DNA of 64,000 nt from a virus. Its lineage: Duplodnaviria; Caudoviricetes. The position numbers and the translations under genes were made by a program. The notes under the pieces are model-generated. The model ran no database searches, had not been told where the DNA came from, and saw nothing but the letters and a program-made list of their open reading frames with translations. Shown here piece by piece: positions 1,036 through 55,237 of the stretch. Positions within the stretch are counted from its first letter, which is position 1. Every line of letters starts with the position of its first letter. The stretch covers positions 32,001-96,000 of the IMG/VR virus record IMGVR_UViG_3300033121_001553; one strand, written 5' to 3'.

Positions 1036-2172
1036 TTATTTTCTTTTAAGCTCATCTGCGTACTCTTTGCAGATCTCATTGTACGTTTTTATTATGTCAC
1101 TTTTGTGATCAAACCAGTACGTTGTTATAGCTTCACTAACATTTTCTTTAAACTTTGCGAAATTTCCCATTTTAGTGTAGTCAATGTACTGCAGCGCATA
1201 TTCTATCATCTGCTTTGCAACATAAAACATGTATCTGCCAAGCACACGACGCGCATTCAAGCCATTGACTCTGTTCCGATTTATTATATCAATGGCAACT
1301 GAATACAGCCAACTCGACTTTCCAGCTATTATATTGGCGATTTCTACATTTTTTCTGCCCGTCAAACCAAGCTCTGTATAGTCAGGTACGTCTTGTTGAA
1401 CAAAGTCGCTAATGAGTACACGAACGTTCTTCTCAACGAGCTTAAAAAAATCAACATACGAATCGTAGCTACGTGAGCTGTCGACGTTTGACGTAATGTA
1501 GCGTTTTGCATGTTTTAGCTTGAGACTGTCGCATATTCGAATGAGCTGCGTAGTTGCAGACGTAAAAAGTTCATCGTCAGCTTCATCGCTCTGCTCGAAT
1601 ATGCTTGATATCGCTTTGTTCATCTCATCATCAATGTTTTCAACAACACCTTCGTACGCCTGCTTCAACATATGTTCAGCATCTGCTCCTTGATGAAAAT
1701 GCAGCGTATGCTTGGTCTCGTAGTACTCTTGAACGTACGATTCAAAACTCATTGTAGCTTCTAGACTGGAAAAGATGCTGTTGACTATGTTGCTTTCATC
1801 GTCAGCTTCATCTGATAGCTCAGCGTAGTCTTGAACAGCAACAAGTAGTTCATCTACGACGTTAACGTTATCAAGCAGCGATTTTTCTGCGCGTCTTCGT
1901 ATTGCTTCATTAACGAAATGCGTAAACTGCTTCGCGAACTGAGCGTAGCTGAAATTATTTTTGACATCTTTAAGCGTTTTTTCTAGTCTAACGACTGCTT
2001 GCATGTTTAGCTTTGTCGTTTCTTCGTCGCCGCTTTCTTCGCTTTCTTCTGCTGCTGTATTCGCGTATGACAATTTGTCGTCAATGTCATCTATTACTCC
2101 TACTCGAATATTCTTATAGAAGTCAGCAACTTTTTTGTGATACGCTTGAAAAATTAGTTTTGTAAATTTCAT
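1036..2172 (-). CDS. Alpha-helical hypothetical protein, paralog family
   Basis: 378-aa ORF; DELLVAVQDYAE and LIRICDSLKLKHA motifs shared with neighbours. Confidence 0.85.
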   Translation of the reverse strand: MKFTKLIFQAYHKKVADFYKNIRVGVIDDIDDKLSYANTAAEESEESGDEETTKLNMQAVVRLEKTLKDVKNNFSYAQFAKQFTHFVNEAIRRRAEKSLLDNVNVVDELLVAVQDYAELSDEADDESNIVNSIFSSLEATMSFESYVQEYYETKHTLHFHQGADAEHMLKQAYEGVVENIDDEMNKAISSIFEQSDEADDELFTSATTQLIRICDSLKLKHAKRYITSNVDSSRSYDSYVDFFKLVEKNVRVLISDFVQQDVPDYTELGLTGRKNVEIANIIAGKSSWLYSVAIDIINRNRVNGLNARRVLGRYMFYVAKQMIEYALQYIDYTKMGNFAKFKENVSEAITTYWFDHKSDIIKTYNEICKEYADELKRK

Positions 2173-2187
2173 GTCTTGTCTTTCTTG

Positions 2188-3333
2188 TTAGCGTCTCGTT
2201 GCGTAGACATAGTCAGCGATTATTTCTGTAACAATATCATAAAAATCTGTTCTATCGATGAAGTCTTTGACGATATTCAAAATTCTATGGAAGAATTCAG
2301 TATGTTCTGCTGTACGTGCTGAATGGGAGACTTTTTTGTTCTCTCCATCTTCGGGTGAATACAACATGTCAGATGATAGTTCTCTGATTTGTTCTGGATC
2401 AACGTTTGCTTTAACGTAGTCAGCAGCTTCATACGCGTATTTTCGTAGCACTGGCTTAAGCTCTTGCATCACGTCATGCGCGATAACTACGTTATGATGA
2501 AGCGCGAGTTCTTTTACGACAATCGTAAGCGCACCTTGACTTCCAACAATCGCTGCTGCAATGACGAATGGAGCAGAATTGTAAGTCACCGGTGACTCAA
2601 GATAGTTTTCCAAAATTTCGTTTATAAGTTGTTTGACGTTGGCAAAAAAACTATTTTTCTTATTTGAGTGATAAGCTTTCGTAGAAGTAACTGGCGAATG
2701 CGCTATAAGAAAAGACTCTGCTTTATGCAGTTTCAAGCTACGGGCGTACCTAATCAGTACAGTCGAAAAATACTCAGCAGATGCGAATGAATTGAGCAAT
2801 TTCTTAACGTTATCGATAAGATCATTTTTGATCGTATCGATAGCGCTCATTTTTCTTCTGATCGTATCGGCTCTTATCTGTGTCCATTCATATACATCGA
2901 CGACACGTGCCTTCACAGAAGATTCTATTGCGCCAGCGATGCTAATCTCAACGTATGGTCTTTCTATTACGTCTACTATAGACTTGATAGAAACATCTTC
3001 TTTGTTGCTCTCTGACTCGCTGTAGTCTTGCGCAAGTATGAACAATTCATCCGTTGTGTTAAAGTCGGCTCCAAGATACTGCGCACGATCAATGATCGCA
3101 TTCGTTATCGCAATTTCGTAGTATTCAAGAACATCTTCGTAACTCACTTTACTAATGAGCTTTTTTGCTTCTTCATGCATACGCTCATTTGCTTCTTCAT
3201 CATACGAAAGTTCTACGCCATCCAAGCAATCTGCAAGCTGCTCAGCAACCCTTCTGTAAAGATCGCGCAGTTCGCGATGATACGCACTCTTTACAAGCTT
3301 ATAGTATTCTGAGCTTGTCTTACCACGCTTCAT
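2188..3333 (-). CDS. Alpha-helical hypothetical protein, paralog family
   Basis: 381-aa ORF; DELFILAQDYSE and LIRYARSLKLHKA motifs. Confidence 0.85.
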   Translation of the reverse strand: MKRGKTSSEYYKLVKSAYHRELRDLYRRVAEQLADCLDGVELSYDEEANERMHEEAKKLISKVSYEDVLEYYEIAITNAIIDRAQYLGADFNTTDELFILAQDYSESESNKEDVSIKSIVDVIERPYVEISIAGAIESSVKARVVDVYEWTQIRADTIRRKMSAIDTIKNDLIDNVKKLLNSFASAEYFSTVLIRYARSLKLHKAESFLIAHSPVTSTKAYHSNKKNSFFANVKQLINEILENYLESPVTYNSAPFVIAAAIVGSQGALTIVVKELALHHNVVIAHDVMQELKPVLRKYAYEAADYVKANVDPEQIRELSSDMLYSPEDGENKKVSHSARTAEHTEFFHRILNIVKDFIDRTDFYDIVTEIIADYVYATRR

Positions 3334-4354
3334 CGTCTTCTTCTTCTTTCTTTGGAAAATCAGCGTTGCTGTAGTAACGTCTCGTCAGATCTTCTACGTA
3401 TCGTAGCATTTCATTGCGAATAACATTGCTGTAGATGTCACCGTACGCGTTGCCAACAGCACGCTCAATGTTTTCTGTGACATCATCTTCTAGCTGTTCA
3501 TACGTCATTATCTCTGATAGAAAAGAAAACTGTTGCATTACGTGATACGCGAAGATACTAACGAACCGTACGTAGTCATCAGTCGAATGTTTGTCTGAGA
3601 GTCTCTTGAAAATCTTCGTAATACCGTTCTTGACATTGCTAACGTACTTTTCAATGTTGCGATGCGACAGATCCATACCGGCTGTCGCACGAGAACGAGA
3701 GCGTTCGTCAGCGCCGTACAGCTTCATCAGATAACTTCTAATTTTTTTCGGTAGCTCGCGCATAATGTACCCGGCTTCAATATCGTTGTTCTTCGTATAC
3801 TGACGGGCGAGCACAGAAATATTCGTCAAAATACTGTCGTTTTCTTCTGTAACACTATTAATAACGAATGAGGCTACAACGCTATCCAACGTATAATGAT
3901 CATGATGTTCACGATGCATATCATTGTACACGCTAAGAATCCAGCCCTTCGCGGTCTTAACGAGCTTTTCGTACTCATCTGAGAACAGATACGTTGTGTC
4001 GAATTCATTTAGTAGCATCTCGCTTTGATCAGAGTACGTACTCATGAAATAGAGGATTGACTCTGCTGTCCTTTCAGCAAAGTCAATGTATATGCTGTAT
4101 TCGTGACTGTCGACTTTGCTATCGTGCTCGTAGCACATTTGTATGTACTCGTTTACTGGAAAGCCTGGCATGTAGTACTGCAGCTCTGGACCGAGCATTG
4201 AAACAAAATTATGCCACGTTTTTTTAATAACATCTTCAAGCATCTCGTCAGCTTGCACTGGGTAGGTAATTTTAAACAGCTTAACTGTAGCGTCACCGCT
4301 CAGCATTTTTTTTATTCGCTTGACATGAGACTCATTTGGTTCGTAAAATTTCAT
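3320..4354 (-). CDS. Alpha-helical hypothetical protein (possibly a distant member of the same family)
   Basis: 344-aa ORF of similar size and composition, coupled to neighbours; family motifs not clear. Confidence 0.8.
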   Translation of the reverse strand: MKFYEPNESHVKRIKKMLSGDATVKLFKITYPVQADEMLEDVIKKTWHNFVSMLGPELQYYMPGFPVNEYIQMCYEHDSKVDSHEYSIYIDFAERTAESILYFMSTYSDQSEMLLNEFDTTYLFSDEYEKLVKTAKGWILSVYNDMHREHHDHYTLDSVVASFVINSVTEENDSILTNISVLARQYTKNNDIEAGYIMRELPKKIRSYLMKLYGADERSRSRATAGMDLSHRNIEKYVSNVKNGITKIFKRLSDKHSTDDYVRFVSIFAYHVMQQFSFLSEIMTYEQLEDDVTENIERAVGNAYGDIYSNVIRNEMLRYVEDLTRRYYSNADFPKKEEEDDEAW

Positions 4355-5385
4355 TTCGTTCTCTTGAAAAATGATAGTATGAATTCAACTATACGTTCGA
4401 ACAACGTTAGTTCACGTACAACGATAACTGGCACGGGCGGTGGCGGTGGAACAGGCTCATCCACGTACACTGGTACTACAGGCGTTGGCGTCGGTTGATC
4501 TACTGGCGTAACTTCCCATGTTTGTAGTTCATCAGCTGTCGCAGGTATCGTAACATTCCACAGTTTCATAACAAGTGGTGCAAGCTTATCGTAACGTTTT
4601 GGGTATATCCCAATGCCTGGTCCAAAAGTCAGCTTTTTGATCAACGATATGCACCAGTCTTGGCTCCACTTCGTGTACGCCGAACCGTCTATGTGCTGCT
4701 TTAGCTGCGTGTGCGCTGTCGCTGGAATGTTAGCTGCGAATGATATGTAAATCGCTCTAACAGCAAGCGTCCAGTCGTCGTTACGCTGTTCTGTGAATAG
4801 CTGTTCTTGCGCATACTGCGTAGCGAAACTGAGCAGTCGTTTCTTTGTGAATTCCCGCTGAACTGTTTGAGCTCTCTGATCTGAGAAGATGCTTGCGATA
4901 CAAGCAGCCCATGTCTTTGCACGCTCTTTTGCTTCTGGAGTCCATGCTCCTGTCCTTCCGCTGCATCCAAGAAAAAGCTGTTTTTGCTGTTCAAGAGTTT
5001 TTACCTCTACACCGTCAACAAAAAATCTCCATTGATCAGTCGAATTCTTCTTGAAAACAGCACCAGTCATATCAAGTGCTGGACGTAGCTCTGACTCTAG
5101 CCAGTCTGTTCCAACAGCGACAGCAACACCTCCGAGCATATTCGATACGCTACATTGTATAGCTTCTCCCCACTGTATAGCGCCAACAGATATTATCATG
5201 CGATCGTACATATTGATCGCAGCGTAGTTAGAACCTTCAGTGACAGCTACAACTTGCAAATACTTATCAAGAGTATCTGCTTTTACTGGCAAAGATACTC
5301 TTGATAGATGATTTCCAGCGTAATATGGACCTTCGTAGCCGCCATAAGAGCCCCATCCAATATCTTTTACGGTAACAGCTGGCAT
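4351..5385 (-). CDS. Putative endolysin / lysozyme-fold muramidase
   Basis: EGSNYAAINMYD..IISVGAIQW resembles a lysozyme-superfamily catalytic Glu plus beta-hairpin. Pro-rich linker and C-terminal amphipathic helix LFERIVEFILSFFKR. Confidence 0.55.
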   Translation of the reverse strand: MPAVTVKDIGWGSYGGYEGPYYAGNHLSRVSLPVKADTLDKYLQVVAVTEGSNYAAINMYDRMIISVGAIQWGEAIQCSVSNMLGGVAVAVGTDWLESELRPALDMTGAVFKKNSTDQWRFFVDGVEVKTLEQQKQLFLGCSGRTGAWTPEAKERAKTWAACIASIFSDQRAQTVQREFTKKRLLSFATQYAQEQLFTEQRNDDWTLAVRAIYISFAANIPATAHTQLKQHIDGSAYTKWSQDWCISLIKKLTFGPGIGIYPKRYDKLAPLVMKLWNVTIPATADELQTWEVTPVDQPTPTPVVPVYVDEPVPPPPPVPVIVVRELTLFERIVEFILSFFKRTK

Positions 5386-5424: not shown

Positions 5425-5895
5425 TAATTTTTTGTTTGTCTTCACGTTCTCAAGCATCGTTTCAGCGGGACCTTTAAGAACAAGCTTTGCTTTTGTGCCG
5501 TCATCAAGCATGACATAAGTCGGTTGTTCAACATGCTGAATTTCGGCTTCATTCACATTTTGATATGAACTTTGTACATTCTGTAGTCGATACTTCTCCG
5601 TTCTATCACCAATTTCAGCGATATAAGCATCGATAACGTTATTCATGCGTTTCTGGAGTTCGTCTCCGACTTGTGGTATTGACGTGTAAATAACACAGTT
5701 CGATGACAGCTCTTCTAGAACTTCTCTATTCGACGAAATGACACCGTCTTTGCTGATTTCTGCATAAACATGACGCTTCTTTTGACCATCAAGCGCAACA
5801 GTAATGTTAATCTCTACTATGGCAACAACCTTTATCACAAGTTTGCTACCAACAGACAGCAAATACAGTATCTGTCCAACGTTGTAGTCATTCAT
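5425..5895 (-). CDS. Hypothetical protein
   Basis: Start MNDYNVGQ overlaps the upstream stop region. Ends ...TNKK-TTA at 5425-5427 (standard-code stop 5410). Confidence 0.75.
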
Positions 5896-6187
5896 CTTGT
5901 TCTGATTCACTTCCATCATCAGCATCGCTATTATACTTTACGATGTTGATCGAGTACATCTGACTCATGCTTATCGCGTGATCTGGCGCTTCATCAATTG
6001 GAACATTAGCCGCTTTGCACAATTTTACGAGTTTGTTCCAAATTTTTGAATCTTGCTTCGCATCCATGAGTTTGCTTACTGGATCTGATACTTGTGAATT
6101 CGACACGACTATCGTAACGCCCATAAGCGCTCGCAGATGCTCAAGCTCATCACGACTCAACTTCAAATCGTATGTTTTTGTGGCCAT
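5888..6187 (-). CDS. Hypothetical protein
   Basis: 99-aa ORF; its ATG overlaps the TTA of the upstream gene (TTATG). Confidence 0.75.
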   Translation of the reverse strand: MATKTYDLKLSRDELEHLRALMGVTIVVSNSQVSDPVSKLMDAKQDSKIWNKLVKLCKAANVPIDEAPDHAISMSQMYSINIVKYNSDADDGSESEQDE

Positions 6188-6435
6188 AATTCATCACCGA
6201 GCAAAGCGTAAAATTCATCGTACGTATTTTTGTTATCAACAGACTCTACTATCTTTTTAACTCTCATTACTGCTTTAAGAGTTTTCATGTCGATTTTATC
6301 AGAGAACTCTTGGATGAGTTCCTTCCGCGACTCCGAGAGCTCAGCGAGCTCTTGTTCAAGTGCAGTGTAACGTTCAACAAACTCTTTGACATCATTCGGC
6401 TCATTCAAAACTTTATCTTCGTTTTTCTTCTTCAT
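6187..6435 (-). CDS. Small dsDNA-binding protein, GapR/DUF2312/T4 DsbA-like
   Basis: VKEFVERYTALEQE..ELSESRKELIQE....DMKTLKAVMRVKK pattern. Ends ...LGDE-TTA (standard stop 6163). Confidence 0.6.
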
Positions 6436-7517
6436 TATTTCGCTCCTGATGTTATATTTTGCACAGCTGCGTCGTACTTAGCAAGTAGATTTGAATTTAC
6501 ACCAGCACCGGCAAGTTGTTCACGCCTTTTTTTGATAGCTGACACGCAAGCATTTACAGCAGCAGCACGTATTTGCTGAAGCGAGACTTGCAGAAACTCT
6601 TGTTGAACTTCTTGCGGTAGCTTCGCCGCTTCAGCCTTGAGCTGAGGGAACTTTGAAAGATCTTTTATCGATGCTGCTTCACGTGCAGGCTGAAGCAACG
6701 CAGCAACGTCTCTATCGATAAAAGCTGTTGCGTCTGACATCATTGACTGCGCGCGCTTTGAGCTTGAAATCTTTTTTTGAACGTACGCAAGCACTTTATC
6801 GACTTTCTGCGCTGTTGCATCGTCTGCTTCAAGCAGCGTTGCACCGCTACGTGAACGCGAGTCATGCACGTCTATCCAAGCATGTCTGTTGAAATACTGC
6901 GATGCGTACTTTGATACGACATTTGGAGCTTCATGCTCGTACACTCCATCTAGAAATTTCGTTATTTTGCCGATGTTGGGTTCTTCACCCAACAATGCCC
7001 CAATGATACCAGTGATAGCGCCAGGCGCTTTACGAAAAAATTGAGTTGTAACAAAAGCAGTGGGATTGCTAATAAACGCAAAGAAGATAAAGTCATTATT
7101 TTCCCAAAGCGCCTTATCTGTTGATCTGTATACATCTTCGTACTTTTTTTCTATCGTATCAAGCAATTTATCTTGTTCATCGAATATCTGCTTGTACTTC
7201 GTCGAATAGAACGGTAGCACAACGCTTTTGACAACTTCGAATGCTGTCTTGACAGCGCCACGTGCGCGTACAAGCGTTTTCTGCCCTTCACCCGCTGCTG
7301 TCTGTATAACATCGACAAACGGTTTTACGAATGCTTTATAGATTCCCGACTGTTTAAAGTCAGTATCAATTTTGCCCCATGTGAAGCCTTGACCAGTGTG
7401 TACTCCACCCGTAGAGTCAAATGAAGCGCCACCACCTCCGCCGCCCTCGTCTTCAAGCAAAACGAGTCGTACATACTCTTGTATCAGGCGACGCTCAGTG
7501 TTAGTCAATTTTTTCAT
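6435..7517 (-). CDS. Hypothetical protein with propeptide-like N-terminus (possible virion protein)
   Basis: Start moved to ATG 7517 (MKKLTNTERRLIQEYVRLVLLE-DEGGGGG), after a TATTTA motif. The track's upstream extension contains an in-frame TTA. Confidence 0.75.
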   Translation of the reverse strand: MKKLTNTERRLIQEYVRLVLLEDEGGGGGGASFDSTGGVHTGQGFTWGKIDTDFKQSGIYKAFVKPFVDVIQTAAGEGQKTLVRARGAVKTAFEVVKSVVLPFYSTKYKQIFDEQDKLLDTIEKKYEDVYRSTDKALWENNDFIFFAFISNPTAFVTTQFFRKAPGAITGIIGALLGEEPNIGKITKFLDGVYEHEAPNVVSKYASQYFNRHAWIDVHDSRSRSGATLLEADDATAQKVDKVLAYVQKKISSSKRAQSMMSDATAFIDRDVAALLQPAREAASIKDLSKFPQLKAEAAKLPQEVQQEFLQVSLQQIRAAAVNACVSAIKKRREQLAGAGVNSNLLAKYDAAVQNITSGAK

Positions 7518-11893: not shown

Positions 11894-11977
11894 AGCGCAT
11901 GCATAAATACACATCGCTAAGCAAGTTAATACTACGAATATCTCTAATCTAACTCCCCGTCTCAGATGAGGATTTAG

Positions 11978-12724
11978 TAAAACTTTAACAAGAAGTATCG
12001 ACTGTGATGAGTCTGACGTTGACTGAACATTTAGTCTTCTGTCAATAATCGTGCTGCTTCCAAAACAGTCTTCTCCTTCGTTAACGTTTCCTATTCTATT
12101 TGCAACGATAACAGCAGCGTCGAGTTCTTCTGCGAGTTGTATCCACTCATCTAGCGGACCAGCTGTTTTACCAGTTGCAGAACATGGTACGGCAACGATA
12201 TCAACAGAACCCTTCTTATAGAATTGAACATTTCGTTTGCCGTAGAACGGATGCGATTCACGGTAAAGATTTCTGCTATCACCAGAGATAAGCAAACCAA
12301 CTCGACCAAACGGCGTCATCGCAACTGGTGAAGGATCATCGCCAGGCATCGCCCAAACATGCTCATTACGATGAAGATTGTGTTTACGTGTTTTTGCTAC
12401 AATACTTCCCGCTGGATCAACGAGAGCTGCTGAGTCGTATATACCTCCCTCATTCAGCTCTACGTATCCAAACGCGATATAGCACGCGTTGTCTAGCGCA
12501 AGCTCAGATATGAACTGCAGCTCGCTGCTATCGCTCGTTTGCGCGTGTTCTATCGCTTCGTCTATGGTTGAGATCTTGCTACCGTTGAACGAACGTTCTG
12601 GCAAAACGATGAGCTTTGCGCCGCCAAGCGCAGCAGCACGAACCATCGCTGCGATCTTTTTCTTCATTTGATCTTGCGACTTCTCATCCCTATACTGCAG
12701 CGCAGCTACTTTCACAGAGCTCAT
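11978..12724 (-). CDS. Carbon-nitrogen hydrolase (nitrilase superfamily)
   Basis: KVAALQ, AKLIVLPE, RKHNL, GRVGLLISGD, VANRIG and FGSSTIID motifs. Domain ends ILLVKV, then TTA at 11978-11980. Confidence 0.85.
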
Positions 12725-13721: not shown

Positions 13722-14165
13722 CTATTTAGCTATCAGCGCTACTATCGCTGCACCAATACCAGCACCAACTGCGATTGCTGCTATGTGTGTTACGTAAAAA
13801 AGCGCAGATGGTTTCGACGCTTCAACAGCAAGTCTTTCGGCCGCAATAGCACGTTCTTCAGCTGCTGTTTTTGTCGCTGTCAAAATTCGTACTTCACGTT
13901 CGTGTTCTGCGTCTCGCTGCATGAAATTTTTCTCATATTCAAGCTGCAGACGTTTACGTTCTTGTTCTAGCGCAAGCTGCATTTTATTCTGCTGGTACGT
14001 TGCGTCAGCTATCATTGTCGCTGCGGCGGCTTGATTCAGCAATGTGCCTGGCCACGGCGCAGTATCTCCCTGTTTCAAGTACGTTACTGCTGGTTTGTCC
14101 TGCGCATAAGATACTGACGTTATAAACAACGTTCCTATAACTGTAACAGTCCAAAGCTTTTTCAT
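13722..14165 (-). CDS. Secreted coiled-coil protein with C-terminal TM (spanin-like partner)
   Basis: Signal peptide MKK-hydrophobic-SYA/QD, coiled coil, C-terminal hydrophobic GxxxG helix; ends TAG. Confidence 0.5.
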   Translation of the reverse strand: MKKLWTVTVIGTLFITSVSYAQDKPAVTYLKQGDTAPWPGTLLNQAAAATMIADATYQQNKMQLALEQERKRLQLEYEKNFMQRDAEHEREVRILTATKTAAEERAIAAERLAVEASKPSALFYVTHIAAIAVGAGIGAAIVALIAK

Positions 14166-14551
14166 CTTTTCGCCTCAAAGTCAGCGCCAATAACATCAGC
14201 AAGCTTACGTGCAAGCTCTTCTGGTGAGTCATTTGACTCTTTTATGATTTTTTCAATCTCATCGCGCTTTCGTTTCTCTAGTTCATCAAGCGAAATCTTA
14301 TACTGCTGCTCAAGCTGCGCAAGCTTATCTTGATACTCTCGTTCTGCCGTCTCTCGCTTTCGTTGTTCTTCTTCATACGCTCGTTTTGTCTCGTCTATCT
14401 CGCGTTGACGTATCTTTCTTTCTTCGCTAAGAAGTTCTATCTGCTGAGACAACGAATGTTGACGACCAAAAAATACCCATGCGATAACTGCACCGATGAT
14501 CGCAAATCCCCAACCGATCCATGCAAATGCTTTTTTAATTTTTTCGATCAT
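14162..14551 (-). CDS. Putative i-spanin-like protein (N-terminal TM plus coiled coil)
   Basis: AWIGWGFAIIGAVIAWVFFG followed by a long E/K/R/Q coiled coil. Confidence 0.55.
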   Translation of the reverse strand: MIEKIKKAFAWIGWGFAIIGAVIAWVFFGRQHSLSQQIELLSEERKIRQREIDETKRAYEEEQRKRETAEREYQDKLAQLEQQYKISLDELEKRKRDEIEKIIKESNDSPEELARKLADVIGADFEAKR

Positions 14552-14745
14552 AACTTTCTTCTGTTATCCAACGAATTTGATATTCTTGTAAGTTTTCTAT
14601 TGACATCATCGATGCCAGACAGCACTGACTGCTGACGCAAAGAAACGTCTGCAAGACCAGCCCACAGACGTTTTATCTCATCAGAGTCTTGTATCGATTC
14701 TGTAACAAGACGCGCTATTATTTTCTTTATGTAAGCTCTTATCAT
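14551..14745 (-). CDS. Small hypothetical protein with propeptide-like N-terminus
   Basis: MIRAYIKKIIARLVTE; ends RRK-TTA overlapping the next ATG (TTATGA). Confidence 0.6.
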
Positions 14746-15106
14746 CAGACAAGATTTTCTCATAAATCTCGTCGATGTTTATGCCATTTTCATTTTTTTC
14801 TACTTGTTTTTCTTTGCGCTGCTCAGACACAGTCATTTGATCAAGAATACGTTGCGCTTCTATTTCTTGAAATGATTTTTCACCTCTGTGTATAAGCGAA
14901 ACCGCTGCTTCATCACCAGAACAAAATTTATCGATGAATACAGCAACAATTTTTTCTAGACTCATACGATGCAACTTGGCTGCATCTCTCCCGCGACACA
15001 AAAGATCTGTTGGCACAAATATTGTTGTGTCGCCTGCATCAACATGTTTTAGATAAAGATTTGACCATATTCTATTTTTGAGCTTCATTCTATTTTTGAG
15101 CTTCAA
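14732..15106 (-). CDS. Hypothetical protein
   Basis: Start TTG 15106 or ATG 15088. Ends ILSDDKS-TTA at 14732-14734 (the standard stop at 14681 gives a 65-nt overlap). Confidence 0.7.
15070..15105. repeat. Perfect 18-bp tandem duplication
   Basis: ttctatttttgagcttca twice (15070-15087, 15088-15105), encoding KLKNR twice. Confidence 0.95.
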
Positions 15107-21792: not shown

Positions 21793-22389
21793 TAAAACAA
21801 GCGCAGACTTCTTTAGTCTTTGCTGCAGAAGATAGCAGCTTGACTCATGCTCATCTTCTATGCCAGCAAGCATATTGTCAACACCACGCGTCAAAGTACC
21901 GCTTTCTTTCATGCAGTCTGCTGCTGATGCACAAAATGCCATGAACGTAACCTCAGCTTTGAGTGCCATTGACGCAAGCTGCTCTGCTGACGCACCTGTT
22001 GCCGAAGCGCCATCGCACATTACTTCAAACGCGTCTTGCACTAGTTCAGCGTGAGTTACGCAACTCACGATCGAAGAGTCGCCGCTGGTGCCAACAGCTT
22101 TTTCTGCGAGAACGTCAACATTACCGTCTGCCGTACCATACAACCGTGAGAATAGTTCATGATCTGCGTAAAACTGTTGACCCATCGTCTGCCAATGACA
22201 CGTCTGCAGTATCATAGCAAGAGCACGTGCACACGCAGCAAGAACGGCAAGCTCGCACGACTTTGAGCCACCAAGCTTTTCGCACATATTTTCAAAAATA
22301 AGCGCGTAGTTCGTTTGTCCAAGCAAAAGAACAAACGTAGCTTCATCAAGCTTACGATGCTTAGATGAAGAGGAAGTTATTTTTCTCAA
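21793..22389 (-). CDS. Dps/ferritin-like protein
   Basis: HWQTMG..FYADHELFSRLY...VDVLAEK and DEHE...YLLQQR motifs. Start may be ATG 22287. Ends KSALV-TTA (standard stop 21763). Confidence 0.8.
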
Positions 22390-22654: not shown

Positions 22655-22663
22655 GTTACATAA

Positions 22664-23224
22664 CTATACATCTGTTATGTAACTCGACCATGACTCGTGC
22701 CATCCATGCACATCTGATCTACGCACGTATTTGCTTATGAAATGATAACGATCAGGAATCTTTGGCTTCGCGAACTTCATCGTGAGACCTGATTCTTCGA
22801 GTGTGCTTGCCCCTTTCTTCGCATTGCATGGCAGGCAAGAAGTAATACAGTTCAGCCATGAATTTTCCCCGCCAAGCGAACGAGGTTTTATATGGTCAAT
22901 TGTAGCTGACTTACTATTCACTGGATCACCACAGTAAGCGCATCTCCACTTGTCTCTGTTGAAAATAACATTTTTACTGAACTGTAGTCTTGACGGCATG
23001 AATCTGCTTCTGTCTTCTCTTAGGCGCAAGACAGCTGGCAAAACGTGCTTCGAACCTTTAGACGGCCATGTGTCTATCAAGTCAACGACACCACGTCTAT
23101 GCAAGCTTATAGCTCTCTGGTACGATACAAATCGTAGCGGTCTCCACGCTGTATCAAGCAACAAACAGTCATTCTCGTAATTCGTTTTATTTCTTTTTGA
23201 CATCGTCGTGCGCTCCCGTAGCAT
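22664..23224 (-). CDS. HNH endonuclease (McrA-like)
   Basis: RDKWRCAYCG, TIDHIKPRSLGG, W.NCITSCLPCNAKKG motifs. Confidence 0.92.
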   Translation of the reverse strand: MLRERTTMSKRNKTNYENDCLLLDTAWRPLRFVSYQRAISLHRRGVVDLIDTWPSKGSKHVLPAVLRLREDRSRFMPSRLQFSKNVIFNRDKWRCAYCGDPVNSKSATIDHIKPRSLGGENSWLNCITSCLPCNAKKGASTLEESGLTMKFAKPKIPDRYHFISKYVRRSDVHGWHESWSSYITDV

Positions 23225-23226
23225 TT

Positions 23227-26200
23227 TAACACAAGTCGTCTTGTTTTGTACGCTGATGTGCTGATGCCTCTTTCATCTCTTGCAAGTTCTGCGATATAGA
23301 TTGAGCCAACTGTTATGGTCTCTGTTGGCTTTAGTCCCCAACAGAAAAATCTTTGAACAATTCCTGCATAACCCAACCCATCAATAACAGCAAAATCTTT
23401 ACCTGTTTTTGTCTTTTTTACACGTACTTCTGTCGTCAGAAACCAGCATAGCCTTGTCTCACCAATCTGCAAATCATCGATAGACAGTATACCACGTTGT
23501 TCCAGTCTCTCTTGGATATGCGATGGTATAAGCTGATTTGTATCGAACTTCCCAAGTAGCTCTGTCATATGCTCGATTTTTTCTGGAATGCTCCAGTCTT
23601 CATCAGACTGACTTACCATCAAATCGACGAGCATGTTCTTACCATTCTTCTTTTTTAGCTTATCGTAGTTACCGATTATGATGCTATGCATAGAAGCGTA
23701 CGACTTGAATGCGCACGGATCGCTACTATCAACAATTTTCATTGACTCAAAAGCGCCAACTTTGATCAAATTCTCGAACACTCTTTTGTTGAACTTGCTG
23801 TGTTTCCATGTACCATCATCGTTCCACAGCAACTCAAAAAGAGAGTTATAGGGTCGATTTTCCAGTATCTCTTCGATAGCTGCTGAGCCGACACCCTTTA
23901 CTGTTTTAAACGATGGAATAAGTAGCTTTTCGTCGTGTGAGCTCACGCTCCACTCTGCTGTAGACTCGTTGATATCAACACTACCGATCTTGTAGCCAAG
24001 CGAACGTATCTCGTTCATTGCTACGATGCGTGACTCTGGATCTCCAAGCATTGTTTCTGCGTACGCGCACAGCCACTCGGGCGCGTAGTACGTCAGTAGA
24101 TACGCGCACATATACGAGTCAACTGAGTACGCGACTGCATGCGATGAGTTGAACGCGTAGCTTGCGAACGCCGCCAAGTCATCGAAGAGTCTACGTGCCT
24201 TGTCTTCAGCGAGACCATTCGCAACAGCACCAGTGATAAACTTCTCTTCGAGGATCTGAATTGCCGACTTTTGTCCACTTTGACCAGAAACGCTGCGCTT
24301 CAAAATATTCTTGCGAAGCTTATCGCAGTCATCTTCGTTCATGCCTGATAGCTCAGCTGCTAGCTGCATGAGCTGCTCTTGAAATATGCAGAAACCATAC
24401 GTTTTACCGAGTACTTTTTCTATCGCAGGATGATCGTACTTCTTGACAAAGCCAGCTTCAGCAGCGTTCTTTGCCTCGATGTACTTCTTATCAACATCAG
24501 CCGCGAGCGGACCGGGCCTGTAGATCGACGTTGCAACAGATAGGTCATATATGCTACGCGGCTTGAAGTTCATGATGAAACGCTGCGTATGCTTCGCTGT
24601 AAATTGAAATATGCCAGCGAAGTTACCGTTGTGAAACACGTTTTCGTAAACATGCTGATCGTCCATCGCATTCACGTCTGGATGCAACGTTTCTTCGATC
24701 CACTTTTTGACGTTCGGCCATGAAACATGAACGTACCCATGACGACGTTTCAATATGAGTTCAACTGCACGCTCAATGATACGCAACGTTTCAAGACCAA
24801 GAAGATCGAACTTAATGAGCCCGTAGACCTCGAGATCTTTTCTATTCATGCCCTCTGTCCACGGCGTACGCAGCTCGCCTTGAGCAGCTATGATCGGCAT
24901 CGCTCTGTCAGCATCTTCAGTTACAATCACACCGCCAGCATGCTTACCGATGCTACGTAGCTGCCTGTACAAGATTCTCGTAGGCGACTCAATCTGCGGG
25001 TACTTTTCGATAAAGGTACGAAACTTATCGCTATACTTCATGCAGTCGTCGAACTTTAGCATGAAGAGCGACTTGTTTTCGCCGTCTGGCATAGCCTTCG
25101 GTCTGACTTCTTCGTCAAGAAAACGTGTTGCTTCGTTAACTTCAGCAAAGTCAATCCCGTAAAATCGTGAGATGTCTTTCACCAGAGACTTAAGCTGCAG
25201 CGTGTTGTAGTTGACAATCGGATAAACATTTTCGTTACCAAACTGCTCACGCATCATCTCGATCAACGTTTCTCTGTTTGAAACGTCTGTGTCAACGTCT
25301 GGTGGATCCTTACGAGATGCACTAATGAATCTGCTGAACAGTAGATTATGCTTCAGTGGATCAAGCTGCGTTATTCCAAGTATGTAGTTCACAAGTGAAC
25401 CACAACCAGATCCACGCCCTGGTCCAACGAGTCCAACGCCGTCTGCAATATCGATGATCGACTTCATCGTAATGAAGTAAAGTGAGAAGTCTTTCTCGCG
25501 AATCATCTTTAGTTCTGTCTTAAGCCTATCGATGTACTCAGGCTTGTCTTGTATCTTGCGTTTCTTCATGCCAGCTTTGCACAGTTCGACAAGATAACCG
25601 AACGGATCCATGCCAGCTGGCACCAAAAAACGTGGCAACTTCATCGTTGTATCTGGTTGCACATCTCCTATCATTTCATGAGCTATGCTCCACGTATCTT
25701 CTATCGCTTTTGAGATGACATCATCTTCGTAAAACGACATACCATCGCAGTAGTCTTTATAAGACCGCCACATCTGCTCAGCGTTCTTCGGATAAAGCTC
25801 GCACTTGAGAGCAGACTGATCTTGCGGTAGCATTGACGGATCTATCTGCTCGTAGTTAAGCCGTCCAAGACGTTTGTAAAGCTCACGCTCTCTCCACAGC
25901 TCAGGTCTGCAGTAGTGTGAGTCTGCTGTCGCGATTGGGCTTAGACCATTACGTTTGCAAAATTCAAGCAAAGCTCTGTTAACGAGATGCTGTTCTTCGA
26001 GTTTGTTGAACTGAATCTCGTGAAATACGTTCTCAGCGCCAACAGCGTCTACAAGCTGATCGTGCGTATTACCGATCGCACGAAGAACTTTTTCCATCTT
26101 CGTTGGATCATCTAGCACTTTCCAGTTAAGCTGACTCTTATCTAGATCTGAGAGCGAATAGAAAGTATCGTACGCAAAAGGTCCACCGATGCAAGCTGAA

Positions 26201-26738: not shown

Positions 26739-26963
26739 TTATTTGCTTTCGTCAGCAACAACTACACCGTTGCTAAGACACATATTACATTTGTAGTGTT
26801 TATGTGGAATTACTATATCGCAGCTTCCACAGAATATCATCTCAATGATATTTTGCTTGCTGCCATAACAAACATAGCTGTCTACGTAGCGTGAATTACG
26901 TAGACAGCTATGACATGTCGTTACTTCGCAAGCAAGCAAAGAGCTCAACGAACAGAGCTTCAA
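26739..26963 (-). CDS. Small Cys-rich (zinc-ribbon-like) protein
   Basis: Three CxxC motifs; fills the gap between neighbours; start uncertain. Confidence 0.5.
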   Translation of the reverse strand: MKLCSLSSLLACEVTTCHSCLRNSRYVDSYVCYGSKQNIIEMIFCGSCDIVIPHKHYKCNMCLSNGVVVADESK

Positions 26964-27283
26964 GTTTTTCTCAGACGGTTAAAAAATCTCTCAGCAGAAC
27001 GCATCGCGTGTTTGATGTACGCAGATCCAGTTGGATTCGAAGAGTGAACATCCCACTCTGGAAATCCATTTAGCTTTCCAAGAGCAGCGAGCTTTTCTAT
27101 GTAACACGCGACAACATAACCGCTTGCTGACTTTTCACCGAGATCGTGATCGAAAGAGATGTGTGTTACATCACCGCGTTTGATCAGTCTACAAGCTTGC
27201 AGCGCAGTTTCGCAGCCGATCCATCCAGCCGGTGTTCTACGATCGCAGTCTTCGTTGCACTTATCATCAAGCCAGACTTTCAT
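26960..27283 (-). CDS. Cyclic-phosphate-processing receiver-like (cREC) domain protein
   Basis: VWLDD...R.PAGW, ISFDHDLG, GY and HSSNPTG motifs; ATG 27283. Confidence 0.75.
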   Translation of the reverse strand: MKVWLDDKCNEDCDRRTPAGWIGCETALQACRLIKRGDVTHISFDHDLGEKSASGYVVACYIEKLAALGKLNGFPEWDVHSSNPTGSAYIKHAMRSAERFFNRLRKT

Positions 27284-27698: not shown

Positions 27699-28526
27699 TA
27701 ATATCTCAAACACAAACTGCACTTTTGGATCACCGTAGTCAGCGTCACCAACGTTCACAAGTACATTCTTCATTTCAAGATGCCTGCATCGACCATGCGT
27801 ATGACCGCTGTATATCTCGAACAGAACATTTTCGTGTTCTTCGGCACGTTCGGATATGAGAGCGCCAAGCGAAGCATTACAGTACCATGGAAGAAATCCA
27901 GTACCTGACTTCGTTCCTCTGTACATACAAGCATCAACGTAAGGCGGCACATGCGTAGCGATGATGATTTTTTTCGCACCATCAGCAAGCGCTGTATCAA
28001 TTTTATTGATAAGCGCATTGTTATCATCACGCGCTATTTGCTTCGCGCATCGAGCGACAACATCTTTCATTGTGTTAAGAATCTGCGGCGACAGCACACC
28101 GCCTGTCGTCATCATGAATTCTTCTATTGAACGCCAGTCGTTCATGACAAAGTTAGCTGCGTTGTAGTTACCAGCCAACGTATCGTACCAGCCGTCGCAT
28201 CCAACAAGCGCAACATCACCAAAACGTATTGGCGTAGACTGCGTTAGATAAACAAGATCTTCCAGCTTCGACAACGCAGGAAAAACTTTTTTACGCATCT
28301 GTTTGATGCTGCCACCGTAGTAGTCGTGGTTGCCAGCAACGTAATAAATCGGCAGCAATGTCAGCTGCTGTAGTTGCGTTAGATGACTAGCGAAGTCTAT
28401 CGAGTTTGAGATATCGCCCGTGAGCAACACAGCATCAGCGTCTTCACACGATATGCGAGACGCCAGCTTAAGTGCGCAGTCACGGGCACTATCGAGGTGA
28501 ACATCGGTGCACCATGCTATCTTCAT
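27699..28526 (-). CDS. Calcineurin-like metallophosphoesterase
   Basis: TDVH, TGDI, GNHD, THVPP and GHTH motifs. Domain ends QFVFEI, then TTA at 27699-27701. Confidence 0.9.
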
Positions 28527-29095: not shown

Positions 29096-29479
29096 TAAAT
29101 AGCCCTGTTCTATTCTTTTCACATTTACTTTGCCCTTGTTGATATACGCATCGTATAGCTCTTCAGCGCTTATACCAGACGCAATAACAATTTCAAAATA
29201 ATAATGAAGTACATCAACAAGCTCTTCAAGATACAGCCCGTGATCTATCTCATTCGTATCTGTCAGACGATGTCTCTTCGAGTTACGAAGATGCTGTATC
29301 GCTTCGAATAGTTCCCCAACTGTCTCATAAGAGATTTCCTTCAAAAATCTTTGACCATCTTTTGATGATAGATCAACTGGAAAATTTGGAAATCCGCGTT
29401 TCTTCTGCAGCAAGAACATAAATTCCCGTTGCTGCTCCATCATCACATCAAGCTTATCTTTCACCGCTGCTTCATGCAT
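29096..29479 (-). CDS. All-alpha NTP pyrophosphatase (dimeric dUTPase/dCTPase-like)
   Basis: ELFEA, EELVDVLHY and Y..K..VN..R...GY motifs; the terminal GY is followed by TTA (standard stop 29075). Confidence 0.8.
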
Positions 29480-41550: not shown

Positions 41551-44331
41551 TCACTTTACAGCACTTTTAAGATCTTCATTAACACGCTGAATTGCTCTAA
41601 CGAACGACGTGTAACGTGGATACGCATCATTGAAACTTAGTTTCCACGACGTTTCGAATTTTCCAGACGCTATCGTATGGCTCAATGACGTAACGATGTA
41701 CATGTTGTCAAGCGTGGTACCAGTTCCAAAGTCGAAAAAGAATTTTTGTGCAAATGAGACAAGCGGACATCCAACTGTTACCATCGTAAGTTCACCTGGA
41801 TACACAAGCATGGGCACACCGCCAACACCAGAACCGTTTGGCTCAACAGGGTTGCTACGTCCTTGAGACTTCATATTACCAGCTGCAATAAGCTGATTCT
41901 GCTGCGACGATACGCTTATCGACTTGATCATTGAATTATTCGTTCCCCACGTGATAGTTGGAACAATTTGCGTTATTGCGCGTTTTATGACGTCAATGTT
42001 ACCATCGACGTGAACGTACTCTGCGCCGTCGCCACCAGTCTTTGTTTCGATCTTGACATCAAAGCCGCCAGACGAGAGTTTCTCGCTTAGTTCTTTTATC
42101 TTTGCGATGAATGGTCCACGTTGCTCCTTCAACGCTCCATCAGACACGAAAGCATCTGGCTTAAGCGTAAGCTGCTTCAGTATGTGGTCTACGGGACCGT
42201 ACGGTTGCATCTGCTTATCGAATACATGCAACCGTAGTATCTTACTTCCCTCGTATACTGTCGATCCGCTATCAGCGATGCGCATTCTTGGAAGCGTTTC
42301 AAGATGCATGTGAACAACTGGAAACGCAAACGTGCCACCATACTGCTTCAGTTTTTCATCAAGTGCGCTTGTAAAGGCTTTGGTATCTTTATACTTTTTC
42401 TTATCAACAGCTGGTTCACGTTGTTTAGCAGTACGTGGCATGTACAGTTCTGCAAGACCGTATCCATCGCTTCTGTAGTCTTTGAGAAAGTTGTCGCTTA
42501 CGAATGTAAGAAAGTCGTATATCGACATATCAGACGCTCCGCTATCTTTAAGCCTCTCAGAGAACAGTTCTTTGAATAGTCCAACGTCTATCGGAAAGTC
42601 ACCGATATTTCTTGAGCTTGCCGCACCGCACGTAGAACCGAACGTGTAGAAGAACAGCTGCGCTTCTTCGATACCATCGTACTGCGATACAGCAGGACCA
42701 AGAACAAAAACGGACATCACTTGAGAAAGAGAAACGTACTTCAAAGGTTTTCCAGCAACGTTTTGTTCGTAGAATTTCTCGAATCCTGGCGCGTCTGCCG
42801 GCGACTTAACGTAAGCGTCTTTATTAAGCAAATCTAGTTTGTTACTGATACGTCTCTTTATATGCTGAGCATGTCTTTCCTTCAGCGAAAGAACTTTTTT
42901 CTTGTCTTTGTCGTCAGGGTCTAGGCTGAATGCTTCTGTGATTTTATCAGATAGCTGTTTTGCAGCTTCATTTATTTGGCCTGTCGCAGGTTGCCCTTTA
43001 CCATTATCAGACTTCCCATCAGGGCTCTTACCAGCAAGCACATTCTTCAATTTCTGTACAGCTTCTTGTAGCTTATTGCCTTCCAGATCAGATGGCAGCT
43101 CTCCGCGAGATGCTGCTTCAAGCAGCTGAGATGCGCGCAAGTCTGGCATGAAGTCAAGCTTCATTTGCGTACGCACCTCCTTTGAAAGCTCAGTTATCTC
43201 CTCAAGCACATTTTGAAGATTAGTAGTGCCACCAACTTTTATTGCATGAGTCTCCGTTGCGCCTTTCATCGCAAGATCCAGAGAAATCTTTATCTGACCG
43301 GCTGGATCCAATGCATAAGTTGCTGATTTTACGCCATAAATCTCACGGCATTTTAGTGTATTCATGAATTCACCATAAACGCTTGAGTTGACATCGTTGT
43401 CAGGATGCTGCCAACCGTACTCTATATCGATGCTTGTTTTCGCGTAAAAGTCTGGCTTGATCAAATCTGCAATCTCGGTCAATCTTGAACGATCATGCAG
43501 TATGATTTCAAGCTTTGCAGTTTTGTACGCAAGAGGACCAGTCATCGACACAACATTAACGCTAAAATTTTCTATAGACATCAGCGGACGTGTCTTGTCA
43601 AGAACAGGAACGTATCTGTTCGACGGTACGTAAACCTCGTCAAGGTTCAACAGCGTTTGCGGTGATGTGAATAGATCCATAGCTGTCTGCGTGACATCGA
43701 TCGCTTTTTTTCCAATCAACGCTTGCTTTTTTACGCCAGCAAGCAATTTATCAGCCGACTTTTGATCGACAGGCGCGCCGCCAGAGAAAAATTTGATAAG
43801 TGACGTCCCGACAGCACGACCCATGTGATCGAGCGGAGCGCGTGGCAGCTGCATTCGTACATCTATGTACGGCATACACCTAGCGAGTTCTATCGACGGT
43901 ATCGCTTTCATGAACGTTGTTATCTTGTTTACGTTTCTAACGTTCATTGATAGATACGGTACATCACATTTCACAACGCAAGATTTTCTAGATAGCGGTA
44001 CATTAATACCAATAGCTACGGCAGTTTCATATACCTCAGTTCCAAGTCCTTGCACTATTCCAACAGAAGTATAACAACGTAGATACTTCTTGAGATTTTT
44101 ACCATCATCAGATCTAGCAAATTCTTCTATCTGACTCTTTATGTCGTCTGAACCTGCGACGCCGTCTGAACGTGAATGAACCAATAGCTCAAGCAAGAAT
44201 TCAAGCGCACCGTCGCTACGATTTTTTGACGGATCTGCATTGAGCTGTGTTACAGCGGGATCGTCTACAAACTGCGTTAGATCTTTTGGTCTAAGATAGT
44301 TGTAGAATCTTTCTAGAGAGCCAGCAGGCAT
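41551..44331 (-). CDS. Putative baseplate hub protein
   Basis: 926 aa; IEYGW motif and C-terminal YIVTSLSHTI..GKFETS typical of gp27/gpD-type hubs; follows the LysM gene. Confidence 0.6.
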   Translation of the reverse strand: MPAGSLERFYNYLRPKDLTQFVDDPAVTQLNADPSKNRSDGALEFLLELLVHSRSDGVAGSDDIKSQIEEFARSDDGKNLKKYLRCYTSVGIVQGLGTEVYETAVAIGINVPLSRKSCVVKCDVPYLSMNVRNVNKITTFMKAIPSIELARCMPYIDVRMQLPRAPLDHMGRAVGTSLIKFFSGGAPVDQKSADKLLAGVKKQALIGKKAIDVTQTAMDLFTSPQTLLNLDEVYVPSNRYVPVLDKTRPLMSIENFSVNVVSMTGPLAYKTAKLEIILHDRSRLTEIADLIKPDFYAKTSIDIEYGWQHPDNDVNSSVYGEFMNTLKCREIYGVKSATYALDPAGQIKISLDLAMKGATETHAIKVGGTTNLQNVLEEITELSKEVRTQMKLDFMPDLRASQLLEAASRGELPSDLEGNKLQEAVQKLKNVLAGKSPDGKSDNGKGQPATGQINEAAKQLSDKITEAFSLDPDDKDKKKVLSLKERHAQHIKRRISNKLDLLNKDAYVKSPADAPGFEKFYEQNVAGKPLKYVSLSQVMSVFVLGPAVSQYDGIEEAQLFFYTFGSTCGAASSRNIGDFPIDVGLFKELFSERLKDSGASDMSIYDFLTFVSDNFLKDYRSDGYGLAELYMPRTAKQREPAVDKKKYKDTKAFTSALDEKLKQYGGTFAFPVVHMHLETLPRMRIADSGSTVYEGSKILRLHVFDKQMQPYGPVDHILKQLTLKPDAFVSDGALKEQRGPFIAKIKELSEKLSSGGFDVKIETKTGGDGAEYVHVDGNIDVIKRAITQIVPTITWGTNNSMIKSISVSSQQNQLIAAGNMKSQGRSNPVEPNGSGVGGVPMLVYPGELTMVTVGCPLVSFAQKFFFDFGTGTTLDNMYIVTSLSHTIASGKFETSWKLSFNDAYPRYTSFVRAIQRVNEDLKSAVK

Positions 44332-44624
44332 TATCCAACGTACTCCGCTACTTGATTAATGTCGGGTATAATAATGACTGTTCCGGGCGGAACTTGAATG
44401 CCCCAACCGATTCCGCTAGCTGCTGCGATGACCCACCAGTAACGTCCGTCGCCGTAAACTTTTCCAGCAATCGTATCAAGTCGTTCACCTTCTTGCAGCA
44501 CACTTTCGCTATACGCGATCGTTCCATCTCTCACGGCGCGCCATATAGCGCTTGAAGCACGTGAGATTCCAATTGCGTTTCCGCCATCGATTCTTGATGA
44601 TCTGCTGTATCTGCTAAAAGGCAT
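44331..44624 (-). CDS. LysM-domain baseplate wedge protein (gp53/tail X-like)
   Basis: GERLDTIAGKVYGDGRYWWVIAAAS...VPPGTVIIIP. Confidence 0.85.
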   Translation of the reverse strand: MPFSRYSRSSRIDGGNAIGISRASSAIWRAVRDGTIAYSESVLQEGERLDTIAGKVYGDGRYWWVIAAASGIGWGIQVPPGTVIIIPDINQVAEYVG

Positions 44625-52835: not shown

Positions 52836-52876
52836 GATTTTTGAAAATTTCGTTCTGCAGCTCACCGCATAAGTAA

Positions 52877-54629: not shown

Positions 54630-54971
54630 TTATAGCGGACTCCACTTTGACGTTTGCTTCGTAAAACGCATTGGCTTATAGCCACGTACTCTTGGCACAG
54701 CTTCAATGTAATTTGTTCCATCATCATCAAATTCATTTTTGAGATGATAAAAGTCCAGCACCTTGTCGCTTGGTATATTAAGCTCCTTAGCGAGAGATGC
54801 AGCTGCATCAGCGTTTTGTCTCTGCTCGGCGTCTTGTCTACCGACATTGTACTTTGTGCTGCCAGCACTGCTTGGAGCACCGCCTGTGATACCAAGATTG
54901 CCGATTTCGCTTAGTACTTCTCTGATTATTCTTTTTACGTCTTCTTCTCTAACAAATCTTTTTGACTTCAT
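54630..54971 (-). CDS. Hypothetical protein with propeptide-like N-terminus
   Basis: MKSKRFVREEDVKRIIREVLSE. Confidence 0.75.
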   Translation of the reverse strand: MKSKRFVREEDVKRIIREVLSEIGNLGITGGAPSSAGSTKYNVGRQDAEQRQNADAAASLAKELNIPSDKVLDFYHLKNEFDDDGTNYIEAVPRVRGYKPMRFTKQTSKWSPL

Positions 54972-55237
54972 AATGATCTCCAGGTCCTTGCAACAGGATC
55001 CCAGCTAAGTGAATTCATAGCATTCTCTCGTGAACGTGCGTACAACGCTCCATCTTCAAGCGTTAGTCTATACTCTGCTTCAAGCTTATCTTTCGGTAGA
55101 TTGAGCGTCTTTTGCAATGCTAGATACGCACCAAAAAATTCTCTATCAACTTCGCCTTTCGTAAGTTCTTTAATGGCTTCTTCTGTAAGCAAAGCGCTCG
55201 CAATGTAAGCCCGAAGTTCAGAAAGGCGAAATTTCAT
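54971..55237 (-). CDS. Hypothetical protein with propeptide-like N-terminus
   Basis: MKFRLSELRAYIASALLTE (ATG 55237); ends WRS-TTA overlapping the next ATG. Confidence 0.75.

Follow-up and report, generated by a model that had tools for sequence, protein, structure and literature searches.

TTATG stop/start overlaps in a large uncultured wastewater phage mirror TAATG junctions and are consistent with TTA serving as a fourth stop codon

The DNA described here belongs to a large uncultured wastewater phage (Caudoviricetes) represented by the IMG/VR record IMGVR_UViG_3300033121_001553. The contig that was analyzed is 186,819 bp long, the G+C content of the genome is 43%, and the window, by which we mean the whole 64,000-nucleotide stretch under discussion, corresponds to positions 32001-96000 of that contig. 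All 68 genes of the window are carried on the minus strand, where they are tightly packed. A second contig of the same phage (L056, a JGI contig of 171,115 bp) reaches, by its coordinates, about 63 kb past the left end of the 186,819-bp contig, from which it follows that the phage genome is at least about 250 kb long. Neither a megablast search with 10 kb of the sequence nor a tblastn search with the phage's 1627-aa protein retrieved a match among GenBank phages, and a tblastn search of the same set with PolIII alpha retrieved only relatives of at most 30% identity, so that no cultured relative or host is known. The relatives used for comparison are 51 IMG/VR loci and three Logan contigs, with PolIII identities of 38-55%.

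Among the minus-strand genes of the window, the one at 30816-34274 encodes the large subunit of a ribonucleotide reductase (1152 aa), which holds an intein with an HNH endonuclease domain and contains no in-frame TTA. Another HNH endonuclease gene (22664-23203, minus strand) comes after the gene for PolIII alpha, whereas in the loci L053 and L054 it is a PTH2 peptidyl-tRNA hydrolase gene that comes first. A gene for a cREC_REC protein (cyclic-phosphate processing receiver; 26960-27283, minus strand) adjoins the gene for a phosphoesterase, and this neighborhood suggests a module similar to those of RNA repair. The 378-aa gene at 1036-2172 (minus strand) is absent from one strain (L060) owing to a 1134-nt deletion, and is thus dispensable in nature. 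The tandem genes at 1036-5385 and beyond do not make up a clear array of paralogues, as they yielded just two weak pairs.

Gene models were made with TTA treated as a stop codon, and start codons were chosen by coding potential and Shine-Dalgarno score while ignoring the position of the upstream gene. Modeled in this way, the contig has 209 genes, of which 95 end in TGA, 67 (32%) in TTA, 39 in TAA, and 8 in TAG, and the 68 genes of the window end in TGA (29), TTA (21), TAA (15), and TAG (3). The TTA stops are evenly distributed along the contig, and for this reason a code with TTA as a stop seems valid for all expression classes.

The earlier note on this DNA had listed three junctions at which the terminal TTA of one gene shares its last A with the ATG of the next gene (TTATG) and two more at which TAA shows the same geometry (TAATG). 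All of them were recovered on the minus strand (Table 1), and nothing had to be added to the list for the window, since the one-base overlaps in its gene models are exactly these five (three TTATG, two TAATG) together with one TGATG at 17911. For the genes flanking the three TTATG sites, no PHROG family could be assigned, with the exception of the Rz-like spanin.

Table 1. Stop/start junctions, alternative junction, and genes with a terminal TTA, in window coordinates.
Feature	Position	Strand	Description
TTATG	6185-6189	minus	Plus strand reads CATAA; TTA at 6187..6189, A at 6187 is the first base of ATG 6187-6185
GapR-like DNA-binding protein gene	6187..6435	minus	Pfam PF10073 and homologues; its ATG shares an A with the TAA of the upstream gene
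Gene with its ATG inside TTATG, 99 aa	5888..6187	minus	No family match; open reading frame with TTA as stop
TTGA, alternative junction	6163..6166	minus	Standard stop TGA 6165-6163 overlaps in-frame TTG 6166-6164 of the downstream gene
TAATG	6433..6437	minus	Gene 6435..7517 / GapR-like gene
TTATG (TTATGA)	14549..14553	minus	Gene 14551..14763 (70 aa) / Rz-like spanin gene 14162..14551
TTATG (TTATGA)	54969..54973	minus	Gene 54971..55237 (88 aa) / gene 54630..54971 (113 aa); GGAG upstream
TAATG	44329..44333	minus	Baseplate-wedge-like gene 44331..44624 / gene 41551..44331
CN_hydrolase gene, terminal TTA	11978..11980	minus	248 aa; Pfam domain ends at residue 245
Gene 21793..22389	21793..22389	minus	198 with TTA stop vs 208 standard; relatives end at 194-198
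PolIII alpha, terminal TTA	23227..23229	minus	1169 aa vs 1209 standard; relatives end at 1170 (about 40 of 51)
Calcineurin-like phosphoesterase, terminal TTA	27699..27701	minus	275 aa vs 419 standard; relatives end at 276
dUTPase_2-like, terminal TTA	29096..29098	minus	Residue 130 vs 137 standard; relatives end at 130 (21 of 31 exactly)

At the first of these TTATG junctions, the upstream gene encodes the GapR-like protein, and its 3' end on the minus strand reads ...GGT GAT GAA TTA TGG CCA CAA AAA CAT ACG ATT TGA. If translation stops at the TTA, the protein is 82 aa long and its gene shares a single base with the next one; if the standard code applies, the protein is 90 aa long (TTA plus seven further codons, up to the TGA at 6165-6163) and the two genes overlap by 26 nt. 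The earlier note had regarded this run into the next gene as independent positional evidence for TTA being a stop. The run into the next gene is indeed there, but its value as evidence is lower than was claimed, since the standard code allows a canonical-looking junction of its own at this place, namely the TTGA overlap, which has no Shine-Dalgarno motif. Genome-wide, seven TTATG junctions were found, four of which are TTATGA, while the other three (window position 6187 and genome positions 159768 and 115196) are not and would have standard-code tails of 7, 6, and 27 codons, respectively. We agree with the earlier note that the other two sites in the window, both of them TTATGA, are compatible with either code. 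Taken alone, the three sites in the window carry little weight, because two of them are TTATGA and the one at 6187 has a TTGA alternative under the standard code.

Comparison with other sequences does not decide the matter at this junction. Residues 15-64 of the GapR-like protein match positions 4-54 of the 72 positions in the PF10073 profile, which places the extrapolated end of the domain near residue 82. A word-based homologue search with the GapR-like protein returned only the protein itself, and an exhaustive search returned 95 homologues; the 87 of these with no more than 110 residues were aligned, and their ends fall at positions equivalent to 82-90 of the query (median 85), without discriminating between the codes. 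Variation among natural strains cannot be used at 6187 either, because it was through an exact match to this very protein that the strains were retrieved, so that the sequence of 6163-6435 is fixed by construction. Finally, no exchange between TTATG and TAATG at an orthologous junction could be shown among the 54 relatives, because even the nearest of them (55% PolIII identity) are without the trait; all 54, IMG/VR loci and Logan contigs alike, have TTA within genes.

A reading that keeps the standard code, with TTA as a very rare leucine codon found at C-termini and the GapR-like gene ending at the TGA, either with a 26-nt overlap or coupled through TTGA to a TTG start, thus finds some footing at this locus in the TTGA overlap itself and in the homologue ends at 82-90, and it can also point to the fact that no long gene is interrupted under table 11. 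Nevertheless, we consider it very improbable in view of the genome-wide, comparative, and population evidence given below, on which the reading of TTA as a stop mainly rests, rather than on the three overlaps.

The earlier note had proposed plotting the distance from each terminal TTA to the next start across the genome, with the expectation of a peak at -1 like that of TAA. Such a peak was found: on the contig, the next same-strand start lies at -1 after 7 of 58 terminal TTA codons and after 4 of 35 terminal TAA codons, and TGA has its peak at -4 (ATGA, 41 of 91). The spike of seven at offset -1 after TTA compares with about 0.4 expected per offset (Poisson p about 1e-7). Likewise, the dinucleotide TG follows the terminal TTA in 10 of 72 cases (14%) versus a background of 6.8% for all TTA (p = 0.024), and it follows the terminal TAA in 6 of 40 cases (15%) versus a background of 5.8% (p = 0.027).

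The possibility has to be weighed that TTA is a stop codon but that the TTATG overlaps have no coupling function, having arisen from gene packing and the easy change of TAATG to TTATG, with the downstream genes relying on ribosome-binding sites of their own. Only seven junctions exist genome-wide, the excess of TG after the terminal TTA is modest, and Shine-Dalgarno-like motifs do precede some of the starts (for instance, GGAG before 54971), all of which would suit this explanation. It is harder to reconcile with a spike that sits at exactly -1, far above the neighboring offsets and in agreement with TAA, or with the chain formed under TTA as a stop by genes 6435..7517, 6187..6435, and 5888..6187, which are joined first by TAATG and then by TTATG in two consecutive one-base overlaps. 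We therefore see this explanation as an unlikely one, albeit the least unlikely of those considered, while noting that actual reinitiation or coupling at the overlaps is inferred from their geometry and has not been shown.

The distribution of TTA within reading frames was examined in two gene sets. The 43 long ORFs taken from the minus strand of the window comprise 18,590 codons, of which only 22 are TTA, whereas the triplet appears 456 and 180 times when the two alternative frames are read. Genome-wide, the set consisted of 175 non-overlapping ORFs on the contig with a minimum length of 100 aa, and 115 of them have no TTA at all after codon 50, including ORFs of 1627, 1313, 1210, 1152, and 1151 aa. 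Of the other 60, there are 54 in which the first TTA falls within the last 60 codons (in about half, within the last 10), and the remaining six are apparent fusions, two of which lie in the window and were resolved as two genes each. Beyond the first TTA, the codon occurs at a rate of 16 per 1000, and relatives with similar G+C use it within their genes at 10-20 per 1000. Of all in-frame TTA codons, 48% are located in the last 10 codons versus a baseline of 3.4%, and for the rare codons TCC, ACC, CCC, and GGG the corresponding figures are 1.5-5%. If TTA were merely a rare leucine codon, as the standard code would have it, its crowding at gene ends would set it apart from the other rare codons, which are evenly placed. 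The stretch between a terminal codon and the first standard stop that follows it in frame is as long after TTA (median 6.5 codons) as after TAA (5.5) and TGA (8.5; Mann-Whitney p = 0.98). Absence of the codon from gene interiors is one criterion for a sense-to-stop reassignment of UUA, and it is met in this phage.

Scarcity is not confined to TTA in this genome. The NCC codons (TCC, CCC, ACC, GCC) and CGG occur in frame at just 0.7-3.8 per 1000 in the minus-strand genes of the window, and they are evenly spread, unlike TTA.

We then compared protein ends with those of the 54 standard-code loci, using tblastn and extending each match to the relative's own stop codon (Table 1). Reading through the terminal TTA of PolIII alpha would add 40 codons and create a 118-nt overlap with the next gene, and all 119 database homologues cover only 93-97% of the 1209-aa ORF that would result. 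For the calcineurin-like phosphoesterase, L053 and L054 each encode an orthologue of 278 aa, whereas the standard code fuses the window gene to the next one to yield 419 aa. In the dUTPase_2-like protein, the terminal TTA corresponds to residue 130 in the numbering of the standard-code ORF, and the last position of the dUTPase_2 Pfam profile falls on the same residue. The Pfam domain of the HSP20 protein ends at 158, compared with a TTA end at 160. Control genes terminated by a standard stop also have ends that agree with those of the relatives. A second criterion for reassignment, that UUA stand where the homologous proteins of standard-code relatives end, is therefore met as well, and the standard-code reading is contradicted by orthologues whose ends coincide with the TTA rather than with the standard stop.

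Natural variation provides a further line of evidence. The stretch was found in sequencing runs of at least eight studies (on wastewater, activated sludge, estuary, and aquaculture samples), in which 82-100% of the words of a 10-kb stretch were present, and this rules out both an artefact and a construct. Strains were compared by means of ten independent contigs with 98.7-99.95% identity. Over 20 kb, each of the 10 terminal TTA codons is conserved, and no new in-frame TTA was seen in any gene body among the ten. SNPs in gene bodies are distributed over codon positions 1, 2, and 3 as 79/47/247 and affect 1.9% of sites, while those in the tails, i.e., between the terminal TTA and the next standard stop, are distributed as 5/5/5 and affect 10.4% of sites (Fisher p = 2e-7). 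Tails with five times more SNPs and no codon periodicity are at odds with their being translated under the standard code. Indels in gene bodies measure 3, 3, 3, 6, 18, and 1134 nt, all multiples of 3, the one exception being a 5-nt deletion that affects the final codons of a gene located beyond the window.

A further case is the spacer at 11894-11977 (minus strand). Its 84 nt follow the TTA at 11978, contain three more in-frame TTA codons and a GGGGAG motif, and lead to a next gene in the same frame, so that under the standard code they would be a linker within a 493-aa "fusion." Such a linker would have four TTA in 21 codons, compared with none in the preceding 248 codons or in any gene body, and in three strains it carries a frame-breaking 11-nt deletion, upon which standard gene callers split the 493-aa product into two genes. 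With the tail SNPs and this deletion, a third criterion, the absence of coding constraint beyond TTA, is satisfied. Together with the orthologue ends, the same two observations already contradict the standard-code reading.

An artefact can be set aside with even more assurance, whether it be imagined as an assembly or base-calling error, as RNA editing of UUA to UAA, or as an altered or synthetic sequence. Besides the recovery of the stretch across studies, the same terminal TTA codons recur in ten independent contigs, the depletion of TTA is specific to the reading frame, and a metatranscriptome contig set covering 20 kb with 11 terminal TTA codons has no consensus A>T on the plus strand, where editing would appear. 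Nothing was found in favor of an artefact, and what was found contradicts it.

Codon statistics, the ends of orthologs and of domains, and the patterns of SNPs and indels among strains lend independent support, in this window, to the premise that TTA ends translation. Our main reading, which we would put at a probability of roughly 0.8, is that TTA joins TGA, TAA, and the seldom-used TAG as a fourth stop codon, and that the TTATG junctions are stop/start overlaps of the TAATG type. What has been established is that there is no constrained in-frame translation past TTA; that a release factor reads UUA is only inferred, in the absence of protein or ribosome data. If the reading is correct, the ribosome would finish translating the upstream gene at UUA, and the AUG of the gene that follows would begin on the last base of that codon, a one-base geometry that would allow termination to be coupled to reinitiation. 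Release at UUA might be carried out by a protein of the release factor 2 type that tolerates U, A, or G as the second base (UGA, UAA, UUA), an inference drawn from what is described for organelles, and the stops commonly used here, UGA, UAA, and UUA, would fit such a reader with a relaxed second position. The gene for this factor would presumably lie in the host or in phage sequence outside the contig. The more detailed proposal, namely a code with four stops in the phage or its host, a relaxed release factor (U-[G/A/U]-A) that recognizes UUA, and the use of UUAUG for coupling in the same manner as UAAUG, is one toward which we lean, with distinctly less assurance than for the main reading.

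The search for a reader within the phage itself was negative: no RF-1 (GGQ) domain (PF00472) was found in the 187 kb searched. A single match to PF03462 (PCRF) turned up in these 187 kb, and, being 31 positions long, below the cut-off, and located in a 712-aa open frame, it was taken as chance. Twelve phage tRNAs were found, none of them a tRNA-Leu, in the 187 kb available from a genome of at least about 250 kb whose host is unidentified. One of the twelve has the anticodon CUA and lies outside the window at genome positions 154237-154308 (plus strand).

These absences leave room for the explanation that TTA is not a stop codon proper but an unassigned or "hungry" codon for which no usable tRNA-Leu(UAA) exists, so that translation is cut short there through stalling, peptidyl-tRNA drop-off, ribosome rescue, or frameshift without a release factor, and TTATG reflects compaction rather than true termination and reinitiation. 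The lack of a tRNA-Leu among the 12 tRNAs and of a release factor in the contig would be in keeping with this, UUA is known to act in such a way in Streptomyces and its phages (PMC10732093), and our evidence, drawn from sequences, tells only that translation ends at TTA and not how. However, a third of the genes, including those for PolIII alpha and the tail sheath, would then have to depend on an inefficient or degradative pathway, and this reliance on TTA is a first reason for favoring true termination. A +1 frameshift onto TAA or TAG was rejected as a general route, given that the terminal TTA is followed by A or G in only 26 of 59 cases (the +4 base is A in 18, C in 15, T in 18, and G in 8). 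The tails beyond TTA have the same length distribution as those beyond true stops, without an excess of back-up stops, and the peak of starts at -1 equals that of TAA, both of which again favor termination over stalling, as does the placement of UUA by the TTATG overlaps at the position of coupled reinitiation. Finally, TAG terminates just 8 of the 209 genes of this phage, which has a tRNA(CUA), and for two of the three TAG stops in the window the very next in-frame codon is TTA (TAGTTA on the minus strand, at 52874-52879 and 22661-22666), as though the dependable stop were TTA. True termination at TTA is accordingly favored over stalling at an unassigned codon, and the latter appears to us doubtful, more so than an absence of coupling, although it is much better placed than the standard code. 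A four-stop code could also work as a device for host shutoff or superinfection exclusion, since the product of any UUA-containing gene brought in under the standard code would be cut short.

Should TTA be confirmed as a stop, it would be the first case outside organelles of a sense codon reassigned as a stop, the alternative codes described for phages so far all being ones that turn a stop into a sense codon. A literature search for UUA sense-to-stop changes in phages or bacteria returned nothing, the only cases in the papers that could be searched being those of organelles. Standard gene callers would then be wrongly extending or fusing about a third of the genes of this phage; in the window, such false calls comprise the 419-aa and 493-aa fusions and a false tail of 40 residues on PolIII alpha. 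A biochemical question would likewise be raised, namely which factor releases the peptide at UUA on a bacterial ribosome.

The mitochondrial code of Thraustochytrium is NCBI table 23. In organelles, UUA serves as a stop in the mitochondria of labyrinthuleans (Thraustochytrium), together with UCA in peDinoflagellate plastids, and together with UUG in the mitochondria of Marsupiomonadales and Pseudoscourfieldia (PMC12574857). The proposed readers are a release factor 2 with a substitution at Ser204 in labyrinthulean mitochondria and peDinoflagellate plastids and an altered mtRF1a in Marsupiomonadales mitochondria, and the plastid case was termed the first sense-to-stop change outside mitochondria (PMC12574857). 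The phage resembles these systems in that the same codon changes from leucine to stop, is found only at the ends of homologues, and terminates a large share of the genes beside the standard stops. It differs from them in being a bacterial phage with a genome of at least 187 kb and 43% G+C, in having UUG and UCA as ordinary sense codons still, and in that no altered release factor was found in its 187 kb.

Recoding in phages has been described for TAG, read as Gln (code 15), and for TGA, read as Trp (code 4), in crAss-like and Lak phages (PMC9523058, 10.1101/2021.08.26.457843). Non-standard coding, a suppressor-type tRNA(CUA), and the near disuse of TAG as a stop are features that the present phage has in common with them. 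In contrast, the change inferred here runs in the opposite direction, from a sense codon to a stop, and no in-frame TAG or TGA needs to be assumed inside conserved genes, all large conserved genes being open under table 11.

In Streptomyces, UUA is the rare codon associated with bldA, and UUA-induced bypassing has been proposed for Streptomyces phages (PMC10732093). In both settings, UUA is a special codon, dependent on tRNA supply, and in some phage genes it separates two coding segments. There, however, it is an internal leucine codon in high-G+C genomes, whereas here it is never found inside a gene, at 43% G+C, and the segments beyond TTA are separate genes in relatives and in strains of this phage. 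The bldA-type criterion of an internal UUA read as leucine in a high-G+C genome is not met.

The closest likeness in gene arrangement is to the ATGA, TAATG, and TGATG junctions of translational coupling in bacteria and phages, where, in packed co-oriented genes, the last A of the stop codon is the first base of the next ATG. The TTATG junctions of this phage have the same geometry and occur at the -1 position as frequently as TAA does in the same genome, the difference being that the stop in question is a codon which the standard code assigns to leucine.
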